Virus record (IMG/VR): IMGVR_UViG_3300028886_000059
Span: 52,415-116,414 of that record
DNA length: 64,000 nucleotides
Direction: 5' to 3' (one strand)
Source: a virus
Taxonomy: Duplodnaviria > Caudoviricetes
A program made the position numbers and the translations under genes. The notes under the pieces are model-generated. The model saw nothing but the letters and a program-made list of their open reading frames with translations, was not told where the DNA came from and made no database searches. How positions within the stretch are numbered: position 1 is the first letter of the stretch; each line of letters starts with the position of its first letter. Shown piece by piece: positions 1 through 26,602 of the stretch.

Positions 1-1121
1 TCAAGCAGCACGTCGTATGTTTCTTTCAGGTTGTCGCGCTTCATGTAGCCAAGCGTCAACGCCCTGCGCAAAGCCTCGCCGCTGAGTGTTCCAAGCCCCT
101 TCATCTTCTCAAACGAGAAATCAGGCGTGAAGGAGTCATTCAGGATGGAATCATGCAGGTTGTCATGCTCATCCCTGCGCGATGCGCTGTCTGACGGCGG
201 GTTGACATAGCCGAAACGTGATTTTTCGCCAGTAAGCTGAATCATCCTTCCGACGGTCTCTCCATTCTTGAGGTATTGCAAAACGTCTGCTGTTGCCTCT
301 GCCAGCGGGTCGGCAAAATAGTTGTTGTTGTCGGCATGTTTGGAATCGTTCATTTCCTCACGGGTGATTCTGCGCTCCGTGCCATCCCATGACTTATCCT
401 GATTGAAGTAAATCACTGGAATCTTGCCGAGGATGTTGTCATACACAGTGACCTGCCATCCCACGGCAGAACGCTGGCACTGGAAATAGTAGTCGGAAGT
501 CCAAATGTCATAGTGCTGCACATGGTTTCCATTTTCCTTCAAGGTATATCCCAGCGCAAAGGCCACCATGTTCTCATACTGGTCAATCAGCGGATGCAGC
601 CTGTAGCCCTTTGAATACGCGGCCACGAAATTATGGTATTTCAGCACACCGTTCTCTTGGTACAGCTGATAGACAAGTGCCGATTCCAGTTCCGAGCCTG
701 CCAGTCGCTTGCACTGCCTCCACTTGGCATGAAAGCGCGTGTCATCCAGCATGTCCTTATACAGCTGGAATGCCCTGTCAGTACCCTCCTTCTTCTGCCA
801 CTTCGGGGGTTTGGCCAGCAGGAAGAAGAGTTCCACCTCATTGATGTACCTCTGACGGGTTCGCGGCAGCTTCTCCGTCTGATAAGGCTCTTGCCCTTCC
901 CTCCACTTGTTCGGGCGGTTCATTACATCGTGCGTCTGCCAGTTGTATTCACGAATGGCATTCGTCACAGCTAATTCGTGGTCTTGCATCAGGCTGATAG
1001 CATGAGCCACATCGTTCTCAAGAATGTAGGCGTACAGTTCGCGCAATACGCCTGCACTGTTAAGTGTGACACCCCTAAACTGCGTCAACACCTGTAACTG
1101 ATAATCGTCCAATATTGGCAT
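1..1121 (-). CDS. Phage portal protein (SPP1-like), runs off the left edge
   Basis: Manual translation from ATG 1121: MPILDDYQLQVLTQF...EKLPRTRQRYINEVELFFLL...; directly after TerL; absent from the ORF track because its stop lies outside the window. Confidence 0.8.
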   Translation of the reverse strand, partial: MPILDDYQLQVLTQFRGVTLNSAGVLRELYAYILENDVAHAISLMQDHELAVTNAIREYNWQTHDVMNRPNKWREGQEPYQTEKLPRTRQRYINEVELFFLLAKPPKWQKKEGTDRAFQLYKDMLDDTRFHAKWRQCKRLAGSELESALVYQLYQENGVLKYHNFVAAYSKGYRLHPLIDQYENMVAFALGYTLKENGNHVQHYDIWTSDYYFQCQRSAVGWQVTVYDNILGKIPVIYFNQDKSWDGTERRITREEMNDSKHADNNNYFADPLAEATADVLQYLKNGETVGRMIQLTGEKSRFGYVNPPSDSASRRDEHDNLHDSILNDSFTPDFSFEKMKGLGTLSGEALRRALTLGYMKRDNLKETYDVLL

Positions 1122-1134
1122 AGTTCTTTCCGTT

Positions 1135-2490
1135 TTATTTGATTGCAATCTTACTATTCTTCTTTGTCACCTTTAGATTCTTCACTATCTTACCCAGCAG
1201 CTTGCCGAGCGTGTAGTAGCGGGCAGCGTCGATGGCGTGATTCCACTTGTCAACGGGAACGTTGATATAGTTTCCATCCTTATCCTTATCCCAAACGTAG
1301 TTGCGCAATTCCTCTTGCAGGTCGATGGAATCTTCCGTAACGAAGATGTCATCATAACTCTGCATCTTGTCAATGCCAGCCACTATTGAGCCATTCGGCT
1401 TCTGAACTGGATATATCATTATTCCACCAAGGGCGATTTCGTCGATGAGTCGCGGGTCTGCGCTATCGGCGAACACCATCAATCCACTATACGGCTTCAA
1501 GAACTCGATGATGTCCTTTGACAGCATTCCAGTCCTGTAGCACAGCAGTTTTATATAAAGCCTGTTATCCCATATTCCGCACATCACAATGGCCGTTGGG
1601 TCATGTGTGTAACCGAAGTCTATTCCGAGCGCAACATGCTTGCACTGCGTCGGGAACTCCTTCACGATACCCCATTTCTTGAACACAGCACCTTCCGCAA
1701 CATCAGCCCATTGGCCGATGACGATGTGCGCATACCTTTCAGGGTCATTGCGCTTCATGGTTTCCACGTTCTCAAGGAACTGCGGGGATAGGTTCTCTAT
1801 GTTGTCAAGGTATGTCGTATGGATATGAAGCACGTCGGGATGCGTCGAAATCTGCACTGGCACACCGTCGAAGTATTCAATCCTGTGCGTGTCCTTTATG
1901 TATTTCTGATAGATGAAGTGTCCGCTGTCCGTCGGGTTCATCACGATGATGATGAGGTTCTGAATGCCCAAGGTACGGATGGAAAGCATGATTTTCTCGA
2001 AGTCATCAAACGAAGTCCACTCTTCCGCTTCATCACAGACAAACACCGTCAGGCCGTGGATTGATTTCAGCTTTGCCGTCTGATTGCCCGATGAGGTCTT
2101 GATGCCTCGGAACATGATATGTGAGCCAGTCTGCTTGTTGATGACATCCTTCTTTGTGGCACGGAAATACTTCTGCGTACCCTCCATCTCTATCTTCTCC
2201 AAAAATTCGGGGATGACAGAAATATCGGCTGATACCATCGTATAGCGGGCGCAAAGAATCTGATGTGCAAGCAATTTCGCATCATCGCGGGGGCTCGGCA
2301 CGGCTTCAAAGGTCAGGCGTTCCAAGAAGGTTTCGACATTGAAAGACTTACCGCTTCCACGGCCTCCAGTGACAAGCACAATCATCTTTCTGCCGTTGTT
2401 CAGATAGAGAGGATGGTAAACAGGCTGCACCTTGATACCCTTGCGCACCTGCCCTCGTAAAACCTTCCGTCTATCTGCTACCCTTGTCAT
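1135..2490 (-). CDS. terL: Terminase large subunit (PBSX family)
   Basis: Walker A GGRGSGKS, Walker B FVCDEAEE, nuclease motifs GIDFGY, DSADP, NHAIDAARY. Confidence 0.95.
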   Translation of the reverse strand: MTRVADRRKVLRGQVRKGIKVQPVYHPLYLNNGRKMIVLVTGGRGSGKSFNVETFLERLTFEAVPSPRDDAKLLAHQILCARYTMVSADISVIPEFLEKIEMEGTQKYFRATKKDVINKQTGSHIMFRGIKTSSGNQTAKLKSIHGLTVFVCDEAEEWTSFDDFEKIMLSIRTLGIQNLIIIVMNPTDSGHFIYQKYIKDTHRIEYFDGVPVQISTHPDVLHIHTTYLDNIENLSPQFLENVETMKRNDPERYAHIVIGQWADVAEGAVFKKWGIVKEFPTQCKHVALGIDFGYTHDPTAIVMCGIWDNRLYIKLLCYRTGMLSKDIIEFLKPYSGLMVFADSADPRLIDEIALGGIMIYPVQKPNGSIVAGIDKMQSYDDIFVTEDSIDLQEELRNYVWDKDKDGNYINVPVDKWNHAIDAARYYTLGKLLGKIVKNLKVTKKNSKIAIK

Positions 2491-3218
2491 TCTTCGCTTT
2501 CAGTCGTTATGTCATTTTCTACATTCTTCCAGTCATCCGTCATTTCCGCATCTATCCAGTGAGATACAGGTATGCCCTGCTTGACGTTCTGCGGCAATTC
2601 TTCATCATCCTCGATTCCGCGCTGGATTTTCCTCCAGTTCGGGTCATGGTGAAACAGAAACGTCGATAGTGCCTGAATGTTCGGTGCAAGTTCCGATTCC
2701 GTCTCTTGAACTACGGCCTTATCCGTCAGTACAACGATGCCAGTACCACCACAATCGGGGCATTTAGGGTCGTTTCCGTTACAGATACAACGCGCCTGCA
2801 CATACCTTGTTGTAACCGACTTAATCTTCCTTCCACCGATGGCCGCACGGTAGTATGCAGCCCTTGCAACACCGATGGCCTTTTCCCGCGCACGGGCTAA
2901 GACGTGTGCGATGTGAGCGGAGCGCACGGCGTTTTCTGATGCTGTCCACCTGTTGTAGTTTCCGTTTTTCATGTGGCTGAACACCTCGCGTGAAATGTCG
3001 AGTTGTGCCGCAATCTCGGTGTCGGTCATCCCCTGTCCTGCAAGCTGGTCAATCTTCTTGAAAAAGATACCTTCGGGGTCATCGTAGTCGTATTTGGCTT
3101 TGGAGTCGGGAACCTTGACGAGCGGCGCAGATGTCTTGCGTCGCTTTGTAGCGGCCTTTTTCACCGTTTTCTTTTTCGGCTTGGCTGCTGCTTCGGTCTT
3201 TTTCTTCCTTTCTGCCAT
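2487..3218 (-). CDS. Terminase small subunit-like protein with HTH and Cys cluster
   Basis: Immediately upstream of TerL; HTH GMTDTEIAAQLDISREVF; CICNGNDPKCPDC. Confidence 0.7.
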   Translation of the reverse strand: MAERKKKTEAAAKPKKKTVKKAATKRRKTSAPLVKVPDSKAKYDYDDPEGIFFKKIDQLAGQGMTDTEIAAQLDISREVFSHMKNGNYNRWTASENAVRSAHIAHVLARAREKAIGVARAAYYRAAIGGRKIKSVTTRYVQARCICNGNDPKCPDCGGTGIVVLTDKAVVQETESELAPNIQALSTFLFHHDPNWRKIQRGIEDDEELPQNVKQGIPVSHWIDAEMTDDWKNVENDITTESEE

Positions 3219-3224
3219 GATGCT

Positions 3225-4067
3225 TTACTCCAGTATGTCAATTTTATCCATGAGTTCGCGCCCGTCCACGAATTTGCTATTGGGGTCGAATCCCAGCTGA
3301 ATGAGTGCGCCCTGTGTCTCTTGGGGGTTGGGGAACGATACGATGAAATACGACAACATGCCGCCGTCGTTGTTGGTGTCGGACTTCTTGTTTATGCGGT
3401 CTTTGATTTTCTGCACTTCGTTGTGACGCGCAATCTGATTCTCGGCACTGTCGGCCATGAAATCTACGCTGCGGTCAAGTTTCGTGTTCTCCTCGCTTCC
3501 GTGGGTGTTCGCATCAACCTGTGCAAGATGCTCGCTATCCTGTGTCAGATTACCCTTTCGCCAGTCGTTAGCGGGGTCTGTCTCTTCGGGTATGTCGGTG
3601 ATGTTCCGAAATTCCTCATCGTCAATGGGTGTTATACCCAGCATGTCGAGGTCGAAGTCGTTGAAGCCTGCGGCCTTGTGGTCTATCTTTGCCAGCACGT
3701 CACGTAACAGGTCATCGTCGAAGTCGCCCTGTACGGCCTTGTTGTTCAAGAACATGTTCTGTTCCATCTCCTCCTTTTCTGACAGATGAACCACCTCCAC
3801 GCGGATTTCATAGTCGTTTTCATGCGTTTCAGAATTGTATTTGTTCACCTCGTCGATGATTGACACCTTCTGATGACCGCCAACAAGATTTCCGCTTTCC
3901 TCATTCCACACGATACCGCCCATAAGCCCCAGCCGCTTCAAGTTGGCCTTTAGCTGCTTTCGGGCTTCTTCCGAAATCTTGCGGGGATTGTATGATGCAA
4001 AGTTTATCTGACTTCTCAGGATTACCCTGCATTCAGCTTGTGCGATTTTACTTTTCTTCACTGCCAT
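3225..4067 (-). CDS. ParB/Srx-like N-terminal domain protein
   Basis: YNPRKI, IVWN, LVGGHQK motifs. Confidence 0.85.
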   Translation of the reverse strand: MAVKKSKIAQAECRVILRSQINFASYNPRKISEEARKQLKANLKRLGLMGGIVWNEESGNLVGGHQKVSIIDEVNKYNSETHENDYEIRVEVVHLSEKEEMEQNMFLNNKAVQGDFDDDLLRDVLAKIDHKAAGFNDFDLDMLGITPIDDEEFRNITDIPEETDPANDWRKGNLTQDSEHLAQVDANTHGSEENTKLDRSVDFMADSAENQIARHNEVQKIKDRINKKSDTNNDGGMLSYFIVSFPNPQETQGALIQLGFDPNSKFVDGRELMDKIDILE

Positions 4068-4070
4068 AAC

Positions 4071-4847
4071 TTACTCCTCCTCCAGTTCTATGTCATCCGA
4101 CTGCAAGTTTTCGGGCATTTCCGTCTTGGTGGTTATGCCGTGCTCGTAGTCGAAAATCAGTTTTTCGCAATATGGGAACTCCTGCAAGCACCTTTGATAG
4201 TCACGCGGGTAGTTCTTTCTAAGAAACAGCAGATGGTCGAGGTCTATAGCCAAACCCTGCGACACATTGCCCTTCACGTATTCCAGCGGCCTAATCAGAG
4301 ACTTCGCCTTGATGTACTGCAACACCTCGCCGTTAGTCCACACGGCCAGCGGGTAAACCATGCCCTTCTTGGTCATGTATGTACCGTTCTGCTTCTTGAA
4401 CATCAGCAGACGCATACGCTTCATGTAGCCATCCACGCCCTTCATGCCGCTAAAGGCATAGGGTACGCCAGTTTCCTGCCTTACCTGTTCCTCGATTTCG
4501 CCGATGGAGCGCATACGCAGGTGGTTCGGGTCTTTCTTCGGCAGCAGATAGCGGGGGTCGGGGTCGCAGAAGAATCCTCCTGCCTTGAATGCGTCATGCT
4601 GAAAATGCAGGATTTTCCGTACTTCGACATTCTTGTAATGCTTCTCAGCCCAATCAATGTAAGGCTGCACATGGTCGCAGTTGTTCACAAGGTACATGTA
4701 ATAGCAGATGACCTTCGGGAATGTCGTTGCCAGCATCTCCAGCAGGGCGATGCCGTCTTTGCCACCAGCCGAATAGAATAGTACGGCAGTGTCGGTCTTT
4801 TCGCGGATGCCCTTGATGATGGCCATTGTCTCTGAATACTTGCTCAT
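4071..4847 (-). CDS. PAPS-reductase-like PP-loop protein
   Basis: SAGGKDG PP-loop variant, SGMK..DG..KR, YPLAVWT. Confidence 0.8.
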   Translation of the reverse strand: MSKYSETMAIIKGIREKTDTAVLFYSAGGKDGIALLEMLATTFPKVICYYMYLVNNCDHVQPYIDWAEKHYKNVEVRKILHFQHDAFKAGGFFCDPDPRYLLPKKDPNHLRMRSIGEIEEQVRQETGVPYAFSGMKGVDGYMKRMRLLMFKKQNGTYMTKKGMVYPLAVWTNGEVLQYIKAKSLIRPLEYVKGNVSQGLAIDLDHLLFLRKNYPRDYQRCLQEFPYCEKLIFDYEHGITTKTEMPENLQSDDIELEEE

Positions 4848-4868
4848 AGTTCCGTTTATGTAATTTTT

Positions 4869-5537
4869 TTAGTTTGAGCCGCCCAAAGCTGTACGCAAGG
4901 CAGCTGCTATCGTATTTCCGCTACCTCGGCGCAATACCCTTTCGCGGTCACTCATCATCCTATCCCAATCATCGTATGTCTTAACCCTGTCAAGGTTGAT
5001 TTCCCTGCTTGGGCTATAGCTTCGCATCATTGCCGACAATCCTTTTGGAAGGGTCATGGCAACGACGGGGAGGCGTGTGCGGCCATCCCAATCAGACGGT
5101 GCTAAATCGTCATCCCATTCTACTTTTCCGATGGCTTTAGCACCATATTTCGCATACATATTCTGTAATCCACCACCATAGCAATCCAGCTTTCGGCCAC
5201 CCCTTGCAGAAGCGAATGCCATGATGTTGGGCATCCTTCCGCGTGTCCTGCTGAATACGGCCTCCACATTGCCGTCGCTTGTTATGGCGAGTCCTGTCTT
5301 GTGGTCTTTAGAAAGGTAATAAGCCGTGCCACTGTTACGGTTATTCCTGAACTGTTTCTTTGTATGGGTGTCAACCATCCAGCCGTGCCTGTTTTTCTTC
5401 TTGGCATAGTTGATGGCATTCTTGAAAGCCTTTGGCGTTGCACGTTCAAATTCTACATGAGAATGACGAATACCCTTTCTTGTCAGGGCATTCTCGACGC
5501 GCTTGTTTGCTTTTTCAATATCGCTTATGTACCTGAC
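4869..5537 (-). CDS. GNAT-like protein, proposed GTC start (222 aa; first ATG at 5378 gives 169 aa)
   Basis: Frame is open 53 codons upstream of the ATG, back to GTC at 5537, and fills the gap to the upstream gene; GGRKLDCY..LQNMYAKYG resembles GNAT motifs. Confidence 0.65.
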   Translation of the reverse strand, partial: VRYISDIEKANKRVENALTRKGIRHSHVEFERATPKAFKNAINYAKKKNRHGWMVDTHTKKQFRNNRNSGTAYYLSKDHKTGLAITSDGNVEAVFSRTRGRMPNIMAFASARGGRKLDCYGGGLQNMYAKYGAKAIGKVEWDDDLAPSDWDGRTRLPVVAMTLPKGLSAMMRSYSPSREINLDRVKTYDDWDRMMSDRERVLRRGSGNTIAAALRTALGGSN

Positions 5538-5550
5538 TCAGCCGTTCCGT

Positions 5551-5748
5551 TTACATTGTCAAAATATCAGCCATCAATTCAGGGCTGCTATAATCCATGT
5601 CACTATCCAGCGAATCATCGCTGGGGCTGTCTGCCAGTTTTCTTGCCTCATCCTCTGTCAGGTAAGGCTTTCCATTCTCCTTGATTTTGCAGAGCTCCTC
5701 AAAAAGACGCTGGCGATATTCAGCAATCTGTTCTTTCGTATGCTTCAT
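5551..5748 (-). CDS. Small acidic hypothetical protein
   Basis: 65 aa ORF behind its own promoter. Confidence 0.7.
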   Translation of the reverse strand: MKHTKEQIAEYRQRLFEELCKIKENGKPYLTEDEARKLADSPSDDSLDSDMDYSSPELMADILTM

Positions 5749-5767
5749 TGTTGTTCAATTAATAGTG

Positions 5768-5799
5768 CAAAGATAAAGCAAATAAATTGATTTACCAAA
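5768..5799 (-). promoter_or_regulatory. Bacteroidetes sigma-A promoter
   Basis: TTTG (-33) and TATCTTTG (-7). Confidence 0.7.
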
Positions 5800-5856
5800 T
5801 ATTTTTCGTTATTTTTTGTTGCATATTACTTTATTTAACTCTTCCGCTAAATCAGA

Positions 5857-5894
5857 ATGGCCACCACCATCATTTTGCTGACGGCGATGGCCAT
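5857..5894 (-). terminator. 16-bp RNA hairpin after the small basic ORF
   Basis: ATGGCCATCGCCGTCA-GCAAAA-TGATGGTGGTGGCCAT with three G:U pairs. Confidence 0.55.
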
Positions 5895-5915
5895 GAGGTC
5901 GGCTCAAGGCAACCT

Positions 5916-6170
5916 TTAGCCCTCAGAGCCTGCGGCAGCACGAAGGGCGGCGGAGCGCAAGGCTGCACCACGAACACCACGCGCCCGCATAGCGGCTACG
6001 TTCTGACGTGCTTGTCGGGCGAATGCCACACGAAGGTCTTGACGACGCTGTTCACGGTTTCCCCAACCTGCACGGCCAGCCGCATAACGGCCACCATTTG
6101 CCAGTCGGCGACTACCTGCACCGTTCACGTTTGACGTGATACCAGTGATTCGATTGATTCTGTTTCTGAC
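5916..6170 (-). CDS. Small Arg/Ala/Gly-rich protein, proposed GTC start (84 aa)
   Basis: Frame open from GTC 6170: VRNRINRITGITSNVNGAGSRR...AAAGSEG; the only in-frame ATG lies far downstream. Confidence 0.65.
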   Translation of the reverse strand, partial: VRNRINRITGITSNVNGAGSRRLANGGRYAAGRAGWGNREQRRQDLRVAFARQARQNVAAMRARGVRGAALRSAALRAAAGSEG

Positions 6171-6203
6171 TCAGCATTCAAATTAAAGGGTTCGACATTA
6201 TTG

Positions 6204-6614
6204 TTAGTTGTCTGAATGGGCATCCTGTTCCTCGTCGAAGATTTCACAGTTCTCTTTCTGCATGACTTCGCCGAGTTCATACTGCATTTGCGTAACATAG
6301 TAGGTCTCGCCGTTATCCACGAAGGTAAGCGGCTCGCCAGTCTTTTCGTCATCCATCTGAACGACCTTAATCCCAACGACCTGCACCAGCAGACGGGGGG
6401 CATTCTTCTGACGGCCATTGATAAGCTGCAAGGCATCGTAGCCCACAACCTCGACATCGCTTGTGCCGTCGCCGTTGTCCTTTTCCACCAAATACTGCTT
6501 GGCGTTACGCGGGTAAACAAAGCGGTGCTCGACCTTTTGCTCACCCTTCAAGATTTTCTTGAAACTGTCGCGCTTGATTTGTAGCGTCAGTACATCTAAT
6601 CCTTCTAAATTCAT
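6204..6614 (-). CDS. ASCH/PUA-like domain protein
   Basis: LTLQIKRDSFKKILKGEQKVEHR resembles the ASCH GxKxxExR motif. Confidence 0.7.
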   Translation of the reverse strand: MNLEGLDVLTLQIKRDSFKKILKGEQKVEHRFVYPRNAKQYLVEKDNGDGTSDVEVVGYDALQLINGRQKNAPRLLVQVVGIKVVQMDDEKTGEPLTFVDNGETYYVTQMQYELGEVMQKENCEIFDEEQDAHSDN

Positions 6615-6647
6615 TTCAATTCCGATTTAATTGTTACTATAATTTTG

Positions 6648-6720
6648 TTGCGGGAGCAGGGCTCGAACCTGCGACCTCCAGTAAGTCAAACTGTTAAGCT
6701 ACCAACTGCTCCATCCCGCG
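6648..6720 (-). tRNA. Initiator-type tRNA body with GAC (Val) anticodon
   Basis: CGCGGGA TG GAGC AGTTGGTA GCTT A ACAGT TTGACTT ACTGG AGGTC GCAGG TTCGAGC CCTGC TCCCGCA A; C1:A72 mismatch, A11:U24, A73. Confidence 0.85.
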
Positions 6721-6884
6721 ATTTTCGGCAAAGTTACACATATTACTATTGTCATGTGAATCTATACCTACATTATGTTTCACCAATTTATATTAGTGAA
6801 AGAATCGCGGTGTTTTGCAGCTATTTCACTTCCATCTATTCAATCATTTTGCTTTATATTTCACCCAGCGGGCGCATTTATATT

Positions 6885-6999: not shown

Positions 7000-7932
7000 T
7001 TACCATTCCGCAAAGATGTTATGACTGGCATTCACGACTTGCACGGAGTACTGAACACGGCCATCCACCTTGTTTCTGATGCTGTCTTTCCAGTATATCC
7101 TCGACTTCGGGGCTTTCGCTGCCACAATCTCCTGCACGTCATTGACGAACTTCACTATGCCGTCAAGCGTGATTGGCTTCTTGTTGTGCTTCTTGCCGCT
7201 TTCCAGCCCTATCTTATAGACATCGCAGAATCCCAATGTGGCCTTTATCATCTCCAGCGAATCATCCAAGTCTATCACAGGCTCGATGCTGGCAAAGGTA
7301 TGAACGCCGTATTCTTTGACCTTCGCCATCGCTTCCACACGCTGCATGTTCGTTGACGCATTCGGCTCAAGGTCATCCCTGCCTGTCAGCGTGAAACCGA
7401 CGCACAGGTTCTTACCGCCATTGACCAGCAGACGATGCCCACCGATTCCGTACACCCACTCCGAGCGTTTCGTCAGCATGGTAACTGGCACTGGAGGCAA
7501 ATCGTTTCTTCTGCTTCCATCCTCGTTACACCCCAATGCGATATAGGCACACCGCATGAATGTATAGAAGGTATCGACTGGCTGCTGTAGGCACGGGTCG
7601 CTGCTGAACGTAAAGAAGATGCCACGGCCATCTGCCATGATTCTTCCCCTGTACTTATCCAGTTCCTTCTCAAATACCTGCACGGCCTTGTTACATCCTA
7701 CGATGAATGCGAGTTTTCTTGAAGCGTCGCAGTCATTCTTGAACTTGACATCCTTTGCCGTCAGCTGAAACTCCTTTTTCAGTTGCGGGATTTTCTGACC
7801 CATTCCGTGACCTAACACGCCTTTCTTGCAGTAGCAATACTCACAGTCGTTTGAACACCCGACAAAGATATTTGCCGCCCAAGGAGCGTATTCGCGGGCT
7901 TTTCCCGCTGGCTGATACACAATTTTTCCCAT
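7000..7932 (-). CDS. Radical SAM protein
   Basis: CSNDCEYC (CxxxCxxC); SIEP motif. Confidence 0.85.
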   Translation of the reverse strand: MGKIVYQPAGKAREYAPWAANIFVGCSNDCEYCYCKKGVLGHGMGQKIPQLKKEFQLTAKDVKFKNDCDASRKLAFIVGCNKAVQVFEKELDKYRGRIMADGRGIFFTFSSDPCLQQPVDTFYTFMRCAYIALGCNEDGSRRNDLPPVPVTMLTKRSEWVYGIGGHRLLVNGGKNLCVGFTLTGRDDLEPNASTNMQRVEAMAKVKEYGVHTFASIEPVIDLDDSLEMIKATLGFCDVYKIGLESGKKHNKKPITLDGIVKFVNDVQEIVAAKAPKSRIYWKDSIRNKVDGRVQYSVQVVNASHNIFAEW

Positions 7933-26459: not shown

Positions 26460-26461
26460 AG

Positions 26462-26602
26462 TCGAGGGAGCAGGGCTCGAACCTGCGACACACACAATCC
26501 ATGTGTAACTTCATGTATGCGAGGCTGCTATTCTTGCGCTCGTATTTACAGCCATCCTCCCGTTCCATATACGGGTGTGCTAACCAACTACACCATCCCT
26601 CT
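26462..26602 (-). ncRNA. tRNA-like RNA with very long variable region
   Basis: GAGGGA/TCCCTC acceptor, GTGT/GCAC D-arm, CCCGT-ATATGGA-ACGGG arm, about 72-nt insert, GCAGG-TTCGAGC-CCTGC T-arm. Confidence 0.7.

Follow-up and report, generated by a model that had tools for sequence, protein, structure and literature searches.

The locus analyzed here lies in a 64-kb stretch of phage DNA (the window), the right-hand 64 kb of the 116,414-bp IMG/VR virus record IMGVR_UViG_3300028886_000059, which is rated 98% complete and holds three tRNA genes. This stretch occurs in DNA and RNA sequencing runs of gut metagenomes from cattle and sheep, and a near-identity DNA search found no isolated phage close to the window. 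At the locus, the minus strand runs from a radical-SAM-like gene into a tRNA, an ASCH gene, a GC-rich basic open reading frame (ORF), an acidic ORF, a GNAT gene, a PP-loop gene, a ParB-like gene, terS, terL, and the portal gene (Table 1). An earlier note on this DNA had listed the tRNA, the ASCH, basic-peptide, GNAT-like, PP-loop, and ParB genes as one cassette in tight co-orientation with terS, terL, and portal; every one of these elements proved to be present, at roughly the assigned positions and all on the minus strand, while the start given for the basic peptide and the extent given for the GNAT gene were wrong and an acidic ORF of 65 amino acids (aa) had been overlooked. The subject of what follows is the tRNA, the first codons of its neighbors, and the genes between it and the terminase.

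Table 1. Features of the cassette and of the adjoining packaging genes in the window
Feature	Positions	Strand	Basis
-7 promoter box, Bacteroidota type (TAACTTTG)	6729..6736	-	~9 nt upstream of tRNA 5' end; sequence
Initiator-like tRNA, anticodon GAC	6647..6720	-	ARAGORN Val-GAC; Rfam tRNA 49.2 bits
ASCH / PUA-like protein, 136 aa, ATG start	6204..6614	-	phrog_625 4.8e-12; AlphaFold2 (AF2) predicted local distance difference test score (pLDDT) 91
Start context GC-UGA-GUC-AG of the basic peptide	6166..6175	-	Sequence
Arg-rich basic peptide, 84 aa, read from GUC	5916..6170	-	ORF conserved in nearly all related loci
Acidic 65-aa ORF, ATG start, promoter-like sequence before it	5551..5748	-	ORF list and sequence
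Second GC-UGA-GUC-AG start context, for the GNAT gene	5533..5542	-	Sequence
GNAT-fold protein (phrog_2563), 222 aa, read from GUC	4869..5537	-	Open frame; PHROG match; AF2 model
PP-loop ATP-pyrophosphatase, PAPS-reductase/CysD family	4071..4847	-	PF01507 7.1e-7; phrog_424
ParB/Srx-like protein, GHQ(K/R) motif	3225..4067	-	phrog_9353 4.2e-70; phrog_620 4.3e-18
Small terminase subunit, terS	2487..3218	-	phrog_309 1e-16
Large terminase subunit, terL	1135..2490	-	Terminase_3 1.2e-25; phrog_2 1.1e-44
Portal protein, runs off the window	3..1148	-	SPP1_portal 2.8e-11; phrog_64 5.2e-23

The tRNA, which the earlier note had called odd, merits the description: it has initiator-like features, among them a C1xA72 mismatch that leaves 1:72 unpaired, and it combines A11:U24 with the anticodon loop UUGACUU, pyrimidines at positions 37 and 38, and no encoded CCA. 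The cloverleaf is kept across 17 aligned variants, with 94.7% of cells paired and compensatory changes in 12 pairs, a result that 0 of 500 shuffles matched. An open 1:72 is a hallmark of bacterial initiator tRNAs. In this family, 41 of the 42 distinct sequences have no pair at 1:72 (C:A in 29, C:C in 4, C:U in 3, A:A and U:U in 2 each, and U:C in 1), while acceptor pairs 2 to 7 stay paired, and this spread over six mismatch types beside an intact stem points to selection for an open 1:72. A11:U24 occurs in 16 of the 17 aligned variants, that of the window included. The anticodon is GAC in 29 of the 42 variants and AAC in 13, and among GAC/AAC variants U33, A35, C36, U37, and U38 are invariant, so that the loop takes the form U-U-R-A-C-U-U. 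Three consecutive G:C pairs at 29-31:39-41 are absent: the window tRNA has A29-U41, G30-C40, and U31-A39, and the family mostly A-U, G-C or C-G, and U-G. Of 72 distinct sequences preceding the tRNA in related loci, 56 have the Bacteroidota -7 box, TAnnTTTG, at a distance of 15 to 23 nt from it; with a -7 box of its own, the tRNA heads the operon.

Set beside bacterial tRNA-fMet, the phage tRNA shares the unpaired 1:72 (mostly C1xA72), A11:U24, the A73 discriminator, and similar D and T arms. It differs in having a GAC or AAC anticodon (AGU in one locus) rather than CAU, in lacking the three G:C stem pairs, in having pyrimidines at 37/38, and in being predicted to carry valine rather than methionine. 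CAU-anticodon versions fill the same genomic slot in two related phages (related loci are numbered with the prefix L). In L242 (3912-3984) a CAU initiator-type tRNA lies just upstream of ASCH and has a GGG:CCC anticodon stem, the sole relative to keep one; in L258 (4178-4250) such a tRNA is one of an array that precedes the PP-loop gene, and ASCH was not detected. It is possible that these CAU-type tRNAs represent the ancestral state. On the tRNA tree the anticodon has switched at least three times. The cassette tRNA of L244 (5092-5164) has the anticodon AGU with G37, and that of L254 is cut at its 5' end and has an unclear GGC-like loop; a search of L254 for a GCC-start ORF found none.

Two further tRNA-like genes were noticed. 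One, at 26461-26602 (minus strand) of the window, has an A1:G72 mismatch and an insertion of ~79 nt after the anticodon arm; its T arm is the same as that of the cassette tRNA, matching it exactly over 24 nt, and the gene, which ARAGORN misses, scores 39.5 bits with the family model. The other, just upstream of terS in several relatives (L008:3942-4012, L010:11948-12018, L020:11662-11732, and similar), has a shortened anticodon loop that ARAGORN reports as 'tRNA-???' with a 2-nt anticodon.

What tracks the tRNA is the start codon of the neighboring genes, not the presence of ASCH or the PP-loop enzyme. The frame of the basic peptide, which is conserved in nearly all related loci and begins GA-GTY, opens in the window at GTC 6170, directly after a TGA, the GTG listed for it at 6128 being internal. 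The GNAT frame likewise is open from GTC 5537, directly after a TGA, with no ATG, GTG, or TTG for 53 codons and its first AUG at codon 54. Both start sites read GCTGAGTCAG, and the GAGUCAG context is complementary to tRNA loop positions 38 to 32, that is, to all seven loop bases. One subfamily of the peptide carries the motif R-R-I-N-R..G-P-R-R-N-[M/V]-N-G-A-G..., and the basic-peptide ORFs of L095, L097, and L126 contain no ATG, GTG, or TTG anywhere.

Across the basic peptides, GAC goes with GTC in 68 distinct cases and AAC with GTT in 7, with no crossed pair; two AAC loci use ATG. In each of the 9 tRNA-less cases, checked with the covariance model, the peptide starts with an ATG that takes the place of the valine codon, and L242, with its CAU tRNA, also uses ATG. 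GNAT-family starts are GTC with GAC (the window and L385) and GTT with AAC (the L009, L020, and L070 types), and in relatives further small V-R-R/K-K ORFs between the PP-loop gene, ParB, and terS begin at GUY likewise. When all GUY-start ORFs are counted, GAC loci hold 266 GTC and 79 GTT starts and AAC loci 46 GTT and 2 GTC, which is the split predicted by wobble at G34 and A34. In L244 two Arg-rich ORFs (at 5606-5608 and 5858-5860) start GC-ACU-CGA, matching its AGU/G37 tRNA, so that the codon and position -1 change in step with the tRNA. For gp53 of the cultured phage BS-TP2, the annotated gene begins beyond the GTC, as would be consistent with a start placed at an internal ATG.

Some loci (L090, L100, L134, and similar) show TAGGAGG(A/T)A(A/T)GC before several GUY-start ORFs of the PAPS-ParB-terS interval, a Shine-Dalgarno-like GGAGG standing ~8 to 9 nt upstream of the GUY; such sites are unusual for Bacteroidota. 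In the genes of the whole record, no sense-strand-specific avoidance of GAGTC was seen (29 sense and 28 antisense occurrences, with ~42 and ~39 expected under a Markov model). GAGTC/GACTC is mildly under-represented on both strands of the record, to which restriction avoidance or codon-pair effects may contribute, and only 3 of the 29 are in-frame xGA-GTC. Stop-codon recoding, read-through, and frameshifting were rejected as explanations for the start-less ORFs, since in-frame TAAs lie just upstream of the TGA-GTC in the window and loci without the TGA keep GAGTY yet have no upstream start. A rumen metatranscriptome supplies a single contig over 4627-7078 at a depth of 33, with flanks at ~3, and a sister run supplies a contig over the basic peptide at a depth of 63; this is a weak hint that the cassette block is transcribed, from contigs that cannot show ends, strand, or level.

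The GNAT protein bears on the start codon through its fold. The earlier note had called it GNAT-like, and its AF2 model (pLDDT 85.5) bears out the name: the top 50 structural matches are all GNATs, led by RimI (5isv; Z 10.2, root mean square deviation [rmsd] 3.1, 137 residues aligned), with Foldseek probabilities of 0.95 to 1.0, while Pfam has no GNAT match for the sequence. Residues 1 to 49 are well ordered (pLDDT 83 to 97 over blocks 1 to 50), the structural matches begin near residue 24 to 28, and the PHROG match begins at residue 33. Because the structural matches begin that early, the fold needs residues upstream of Met54, the residue at which the database copy of the protein starts. Homologues that start with Met align to V1 of the window protein, and by eye the R-T-R-G-R-M after strand 4 resembles a CoA loop. 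With known GNAT acetyltransferases, of which RimI, NatB, and the tabtoxin resistance protein have the closest folds, the protein has the complete fold in common; it differs from them in being a stand-alone protein with a GUC start and with a Gly-rich C-terminal tail like that of the basic peptides.

This tail, roughly (F/L)-G-(L/M/V/G)-(S/T/A)-x-G, ends the basic peptides and the GNAT proteins in similar form (window 4869-4900 and 5916-5945), the two being otherwise unrelated, and is found in ATG-started relatives as well; it may be a targeting or processing signal. The same GNAT domain family also occurs inside single ORFs of 1,700 to 2,260 aa in other phages (L396-L411). These long ORFs may be virion-delivered polyvalent proteins, a likeness that we draw from size only.

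The arrangement is conserved far beyond chance. In all 80 IMG/VR loci fetched with the PP-loop (PAPS) protein at an identity of at least 58%, two of them cut at the edge, tRNA, ASCH, PP-loop, ParB, and terL stand in identical order wherever the sequence is present; ARAGORN missed the tRNA in three, and the covariance model was positive in all three. A scan with the tRNA loop alone gave ~75 true tRNAs, and each of those with enough downstream DNA has ASCH ~70 nt away, followed by PP-loop, ParB, terS, and terL. These loci include a second deep allele class, whose three proteins are only ~30% identical to those of the window. Wherever a tRNA-bearing locus has sequence there, ASCH follows the tRNA at 17 to 150 nt, the deep allele class and L242 included, and the order tRNA-ASCH-basic peptide-PAPS reductase-ParB-terS-terL is found in well over 100 IMG/VR contigs. 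The family tRNA is also held by Parabacteroides, Bacteroides, and Paramuribaculum assemblies; in bacterial genomes the loop pattern gives mostly chance matches, with the family tRNA (>85 bits) in 5 of 80 loci only. The block, with its tRNA, also occurs in BS-TP2, a cultured temperate phage of Bacteroides salyersiae that was detected in 33.5% of 930 gut viromes; the paper describing BS-TP2 says nothing of tRNAs (PMC12694917). In Bacteroidales phages of the gut and rumen, the cassette forms a conserved module ahead of the terminase genes.

At greater distance the components assort apart. Every locus found through the tRNA has ASCH, PAPS, and ParB, and a profile scan for distant PP-loop relatives found 15 loci with ASCH-PAPS-ParB and no tRNA within 6 kb on either side. 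PAPS-ParB without ASCH or tRNA occurs in the phages RAP44 and LR1 and in three other loci. The distribution is nested, with PAPS-ParB the widest (phages of Bacteroidota and Bacillota), ASCH-PAPS-ParB within it, and the tRNA plus GUY starts innermost. That pairs of PAPS-reductase-like and ParB proteins occur near phage packaging genes, as the earlier note stated, is confirmed by their position directly upstream of terS/terL in three unrelated phages (Bacteroides BS-TP2, Riemerella RAP44, and Lactobacillus LR1). The co-occurrence of tRNA, ASCH, and PP-loop, which the same note had proposed as a check, breaks down at this distance.

ASCH, the PP-loop enzyme, and the ParB-like protein make up a trio. 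For ASCH, the fold proposed in the earlier note holds: the best fold matches of the AF2 model are ASCH proteins, at middling Z values (3iuw, VIA Z 7.9, rmsd 3.2, 78 residues aligned; ZmASCH 5guq, Z 5.9), followed by YTH and other PUA-like domains. By sequence, the window protein has no Pfam match, 7 of 19 homologues match PF04266 (best 4.3e-5) and 2 match DUF3850, and a PDB sequence-profile search with the ASCH alignment returned only noise. The PP-loop protein scores 29.8 bits against PF01507 (cut-off 22.5), and its best PDB profile matches are CysD (1zun, 5e-8) and PAPS reductase (2oq2, 0.0025). All 17 sequences compared share S26, G29, K30, and D31 of its motif, which reads SAGGKDG in the window and SL-GKDS in the second allele class, and its alignment has one nearly invariant cysteine (C48) and no conserved Cys cluster. 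The ParB protein matches phrog_620 and, at 5.2e-9, phrog_723, both described as 'ParB-like partition protein'; Pfam ParB_N (PF02195) is matched by 3 of 11 homologues (best 1.5e-4), PDB ParB matches are weak (E 0.04 to 0.1), and G64-H65, invariant, is followed by Q-(K/R). NCBIfam gave weak CysD matches for the PP-loop protein, nothing for ParB, and no IbrA/IbrB or ASCH names. Among the cassette genes scanned, no match to a desulfurase or DndD/E-like family was found, the rest of the genome not having been scanned for them.

ParB folds occur fused to ASCH/DUF3850 domains and to DNA methyltransferases (bioRxiv 10.1101/2025.10.10.680097), and ParB N-domain/DNA methyltransferase fusions lie in the same PHROG neighborhood (phrog_498). 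These fusions are an argument for grouping ASCH with ParB and the PP-loop enzyme in a DNA-directed role beside packaging. By position, domain fusions, and analogy, the trio most likely acts on phage DNA at or before packaging, and its distribution suggests a separate, widespread pre-terminase module older than the tRNA. The earlier note had offered modification of packaged DNA as an alternative to tRNA binding for ASCH and the PP-loop enzyme; as a role for the trio, it now appears the likelier of the two.

Comparative analysis of these sequences thus makes it likely, in our view, that the cassette consists of two layers, a private initiator tRNA and an older, DNA-directed ASCH/PP-loop/ParB trio. 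In the first layer, a phage-private initiator derived from an initiator tRNA would head the operon from its own promoter and would start translation at GUC (at GUU when base 34 is A) in a GA-GUY-AG context. It is probably charged with valine, as A35 and C36 in the anticodon predict, and pairing of the start context with U32 to U38 may compensate for the three G:C pairs that its anticodon stem lacks. Its clients in the window would be the 84-aa Arg-rich peptide and the GNAT-fold protein, to which relatives would add the small V-R-R/K-K proteins. In the second layer the trio, which is found without the tRNA and always adjoins the terminase genes, would modify, mark, or recognize phage DNA. The weakest step of the proposal is that the GNAT protein and the Arg-rich peptides may be accessory proteins or be co-packaged. 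The tRNA appears to have been inserted later, at the operon head, and the nested distribution makes ASCH and the PP-loop enzyme unlikely as dedicated tRNA modifiers.

For the tRNA itself, we lean, somewhat less firmly, toward natural orthogonal initiation in Bacteroidales phages, in which the anticodon arm of an initiator would have been rebuilt from CAU to GAC, AAC, or AGU and matched to a private start signal. This signal would pair beyond the codon, with up to seven loop bases and with -1:37 co-varying, and the tRNA and the start codons of its clients would have switched together several times. The tRNA promoter would then gate the synthesis of small Arg-rich proteins and of a GNAT enzyme next to the packaging genes.

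Several points weigh against this account. An ATG (or a GTG, as in the window) lies 8 to 17 codons downstream of the GUY in the largest locus groups, so that a shorter product is possible, and a few tRNA-bearing loci (L020, L184, L242, and L254) use ATG for the peptide. Related loci share descent, and the independent events are few: at least three anticodon switches together with the AGU and CAU states. Support for GUC translation, aminoacylation, and formylation is comparative throughout. Bacterial initiators in E. coli need three G:C pairs in the anticodon stem, which the GAC/AAC variants do not have, and to our knowledge a seven-base pairing between loop and mRNA is without precedent in the ribosomal P site. 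As for the trio, the scanned cassette genes include neither a sulfur donor nor further Dnd parts, the PP-loop alignment has no conserved Cys cluster, and the strict adjacency of tRNA and ASCH wherever the tRNA occurs leaves room for a link between them.

For the trio, the alternative that deserves most attention, doubtful as we consider it, is that the PAPS-reductase-like and ParB-like pair, with ASCH, serves as a late-gene transcription co-activator like IbrA/IbrB of E. coli. IbrA and IbrB are described as a PAPS-reductase-like and ParB-like pair that co-activates the expression of prophage genes, many phages have their late activators directly before terS, and ParB-family proteins can regulate transcription. 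However, no NCBIfam IbrA/IbrB model was matched, the strictly conserved PP-loop motif suggests catalysis, and the ParB N-domain is fused to DNA methyltransferases in the same PHROG neighborhood.

That ASCH, the PP-loop enzyme, or both bind or modify the odd tRNA, for instance to offset its missing initiator determinants, as the earlier note proposed, the whole cassette then forming one tRNA-centered unit, now seems improbable. PUA-like folds do bind tRNA, PP-loop enzymes include tRNA modifiers, ASCH adjoins the tRNA in all tRNA-bearing loci with sequence, and the ASCH fold list holds the PUA-domain pseudouridine synthase TruB and the ac4C amidohydrolase YqfB (Z 4.4 to 4.6). Yet the trio stands without a tRNA in the 15 loci described above, the PAPS-ParB pair stands alone in the Riemerella and Lactobacillus phages, and L258 has an initiator-type tRNA and no ASCH. 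Moreover, the ParB-ASCH/DUF3850 fusions link ASCH to ParB, and the PAPS-like protein lacks a conserved Cys cluster such as tRNA thiolases use.

Concerning the tRNA, it is very improbable that the complementarity between loop and mRNA is regulatory, with the tRNA or a fragment of it acting as an antisense or specifier-like sensor on GAGUYAG sites and the ORFs starting otherwise. Seven contiguous complementary bases are more than decoding needs, and positions -1 and 37 co-vary in L244, both of which would suit a sensor. On the other hand, several ORFs have no alternative start, and the paired triplet is always in frame, as the first codon of a conserved protein and in the place of ATG in orthologues; conserved initiator-specific features of the acceptor would also be needless for an antisense loop. 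Least probable, by a little, is an ordinary elongator tRNA-Val that supplements host decoding or serves as a nuclease-resistant copy, the GUY starts being gene-calling artifacts: it has in its favor the ARAGORN call of tRNA-Val, A35-C36, the frequency of GUC in the genome of the window (567 codons, 16.9 per thousand), the downstream AUG codons of many client ORFs, and the fact that phage tRNAs with altered loops are known to escape host nucleases, but the tRNA lacks a paired 1:72 and a purine at 37, its 1:72 mismatch is conserved through six types, the opposite of what an elongator needs, U37 is invariant, start contexts co-vary over three anticodon states, some ORFs have no canonical start at all, orthologues without the tRNA have ATG at the position of the valine, and the GNAT fold needs residues before the first AUG.

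Returning to the two-layer reading, its second part can be compared with known systems. Like IbrA/IbrB and DndC/DndB, the cassette pairs a PAPS-reductase-family PP-loop enzyme with a ParB/Srx-like protein, and it does so in a phage or prophage context. It differs from IbrA/IbrB in having no NCBIfam match to them and no Pfam DUF3440 match, from DndC in its lack of a conserved Cys cluster and of a DndA/D/E-like gene among the scanned cassette genes, and from both in being fixed directly upstream of terS with an ASCH gene and Arg-rich peptides added; the trio thus resembles DndB/DndC and IbrB/IbrA in domain make-up only. The ParB-CTPase/ASCH/DUF3850 fusions of phages and archaea (bioRxiv 10.1101/2025.10.10.680097) likewise join a ParB N-domain to a PUA-like reader, whereas in the cassette ASCH and ParB are separate genes with the PP-loop enzyme between them.

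A few neighboring features stand outside these comparisons. The acidic 65-aa ORF has a tblastn homologue in L007 only and a similar-looking ORF, judged by eye, in L070; it found no family match in Pfam or PHROG scans. Directly upstream of the tRNA, the radical-SAM-like gene (7000-7932, minus strand) has a CxxxCxxC motif and a weak spore-photoproduct-lyase match; being shared only with the closest relative, L007, it lies outside the conserved cassette. An exact copy of the first 100 bases of the record stands ~224 bases from its end, which implies a ~224-bp direct terminal repeat (G000:1-224 and 116191-116414); IMG/VR lists the record as linear.

We know of no natural initiator tRNA that carries an anticodon other than CAU, and full-text literature searches found no natural initiator tRNA reading a non-AUG start, only engineered ones. 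In E. coli, an engineered initiator tRNA(AAC) initiates at GUU, and formyl-valine N termini were observed (bioRxiv 10.1101/2021.05.25.445580); other engineered non-AUG initiator mutants have been made in the same organism (PMC11744186). The principle is the same as that proposed here, a changed anticodon on an initiator body reading the matching non-AUG codon, with AAC used in both. The engineered tRNAs, however, keep the native anticodon stem and loop context, while the phage family has a remodeled arm, an extended mRNA context, and dedicated clients.

If the reading is correct, the ASCH/PP-loop/ParB trio stands as a separate, widespread pre-terminase module, and gene callers systematically truncate or miss genes with GUY starts. 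BS-TP2, being cultured and highly prevalent, makes the reading testable, and the tRNA would offer a ready-made orthogonal initiation part for Bacteroides engineering. For the phages themselves, the cassette would amount to a start codon owned by the virus, and with it a new form of phage control over when, and in which cell, a subset of genes is translated.

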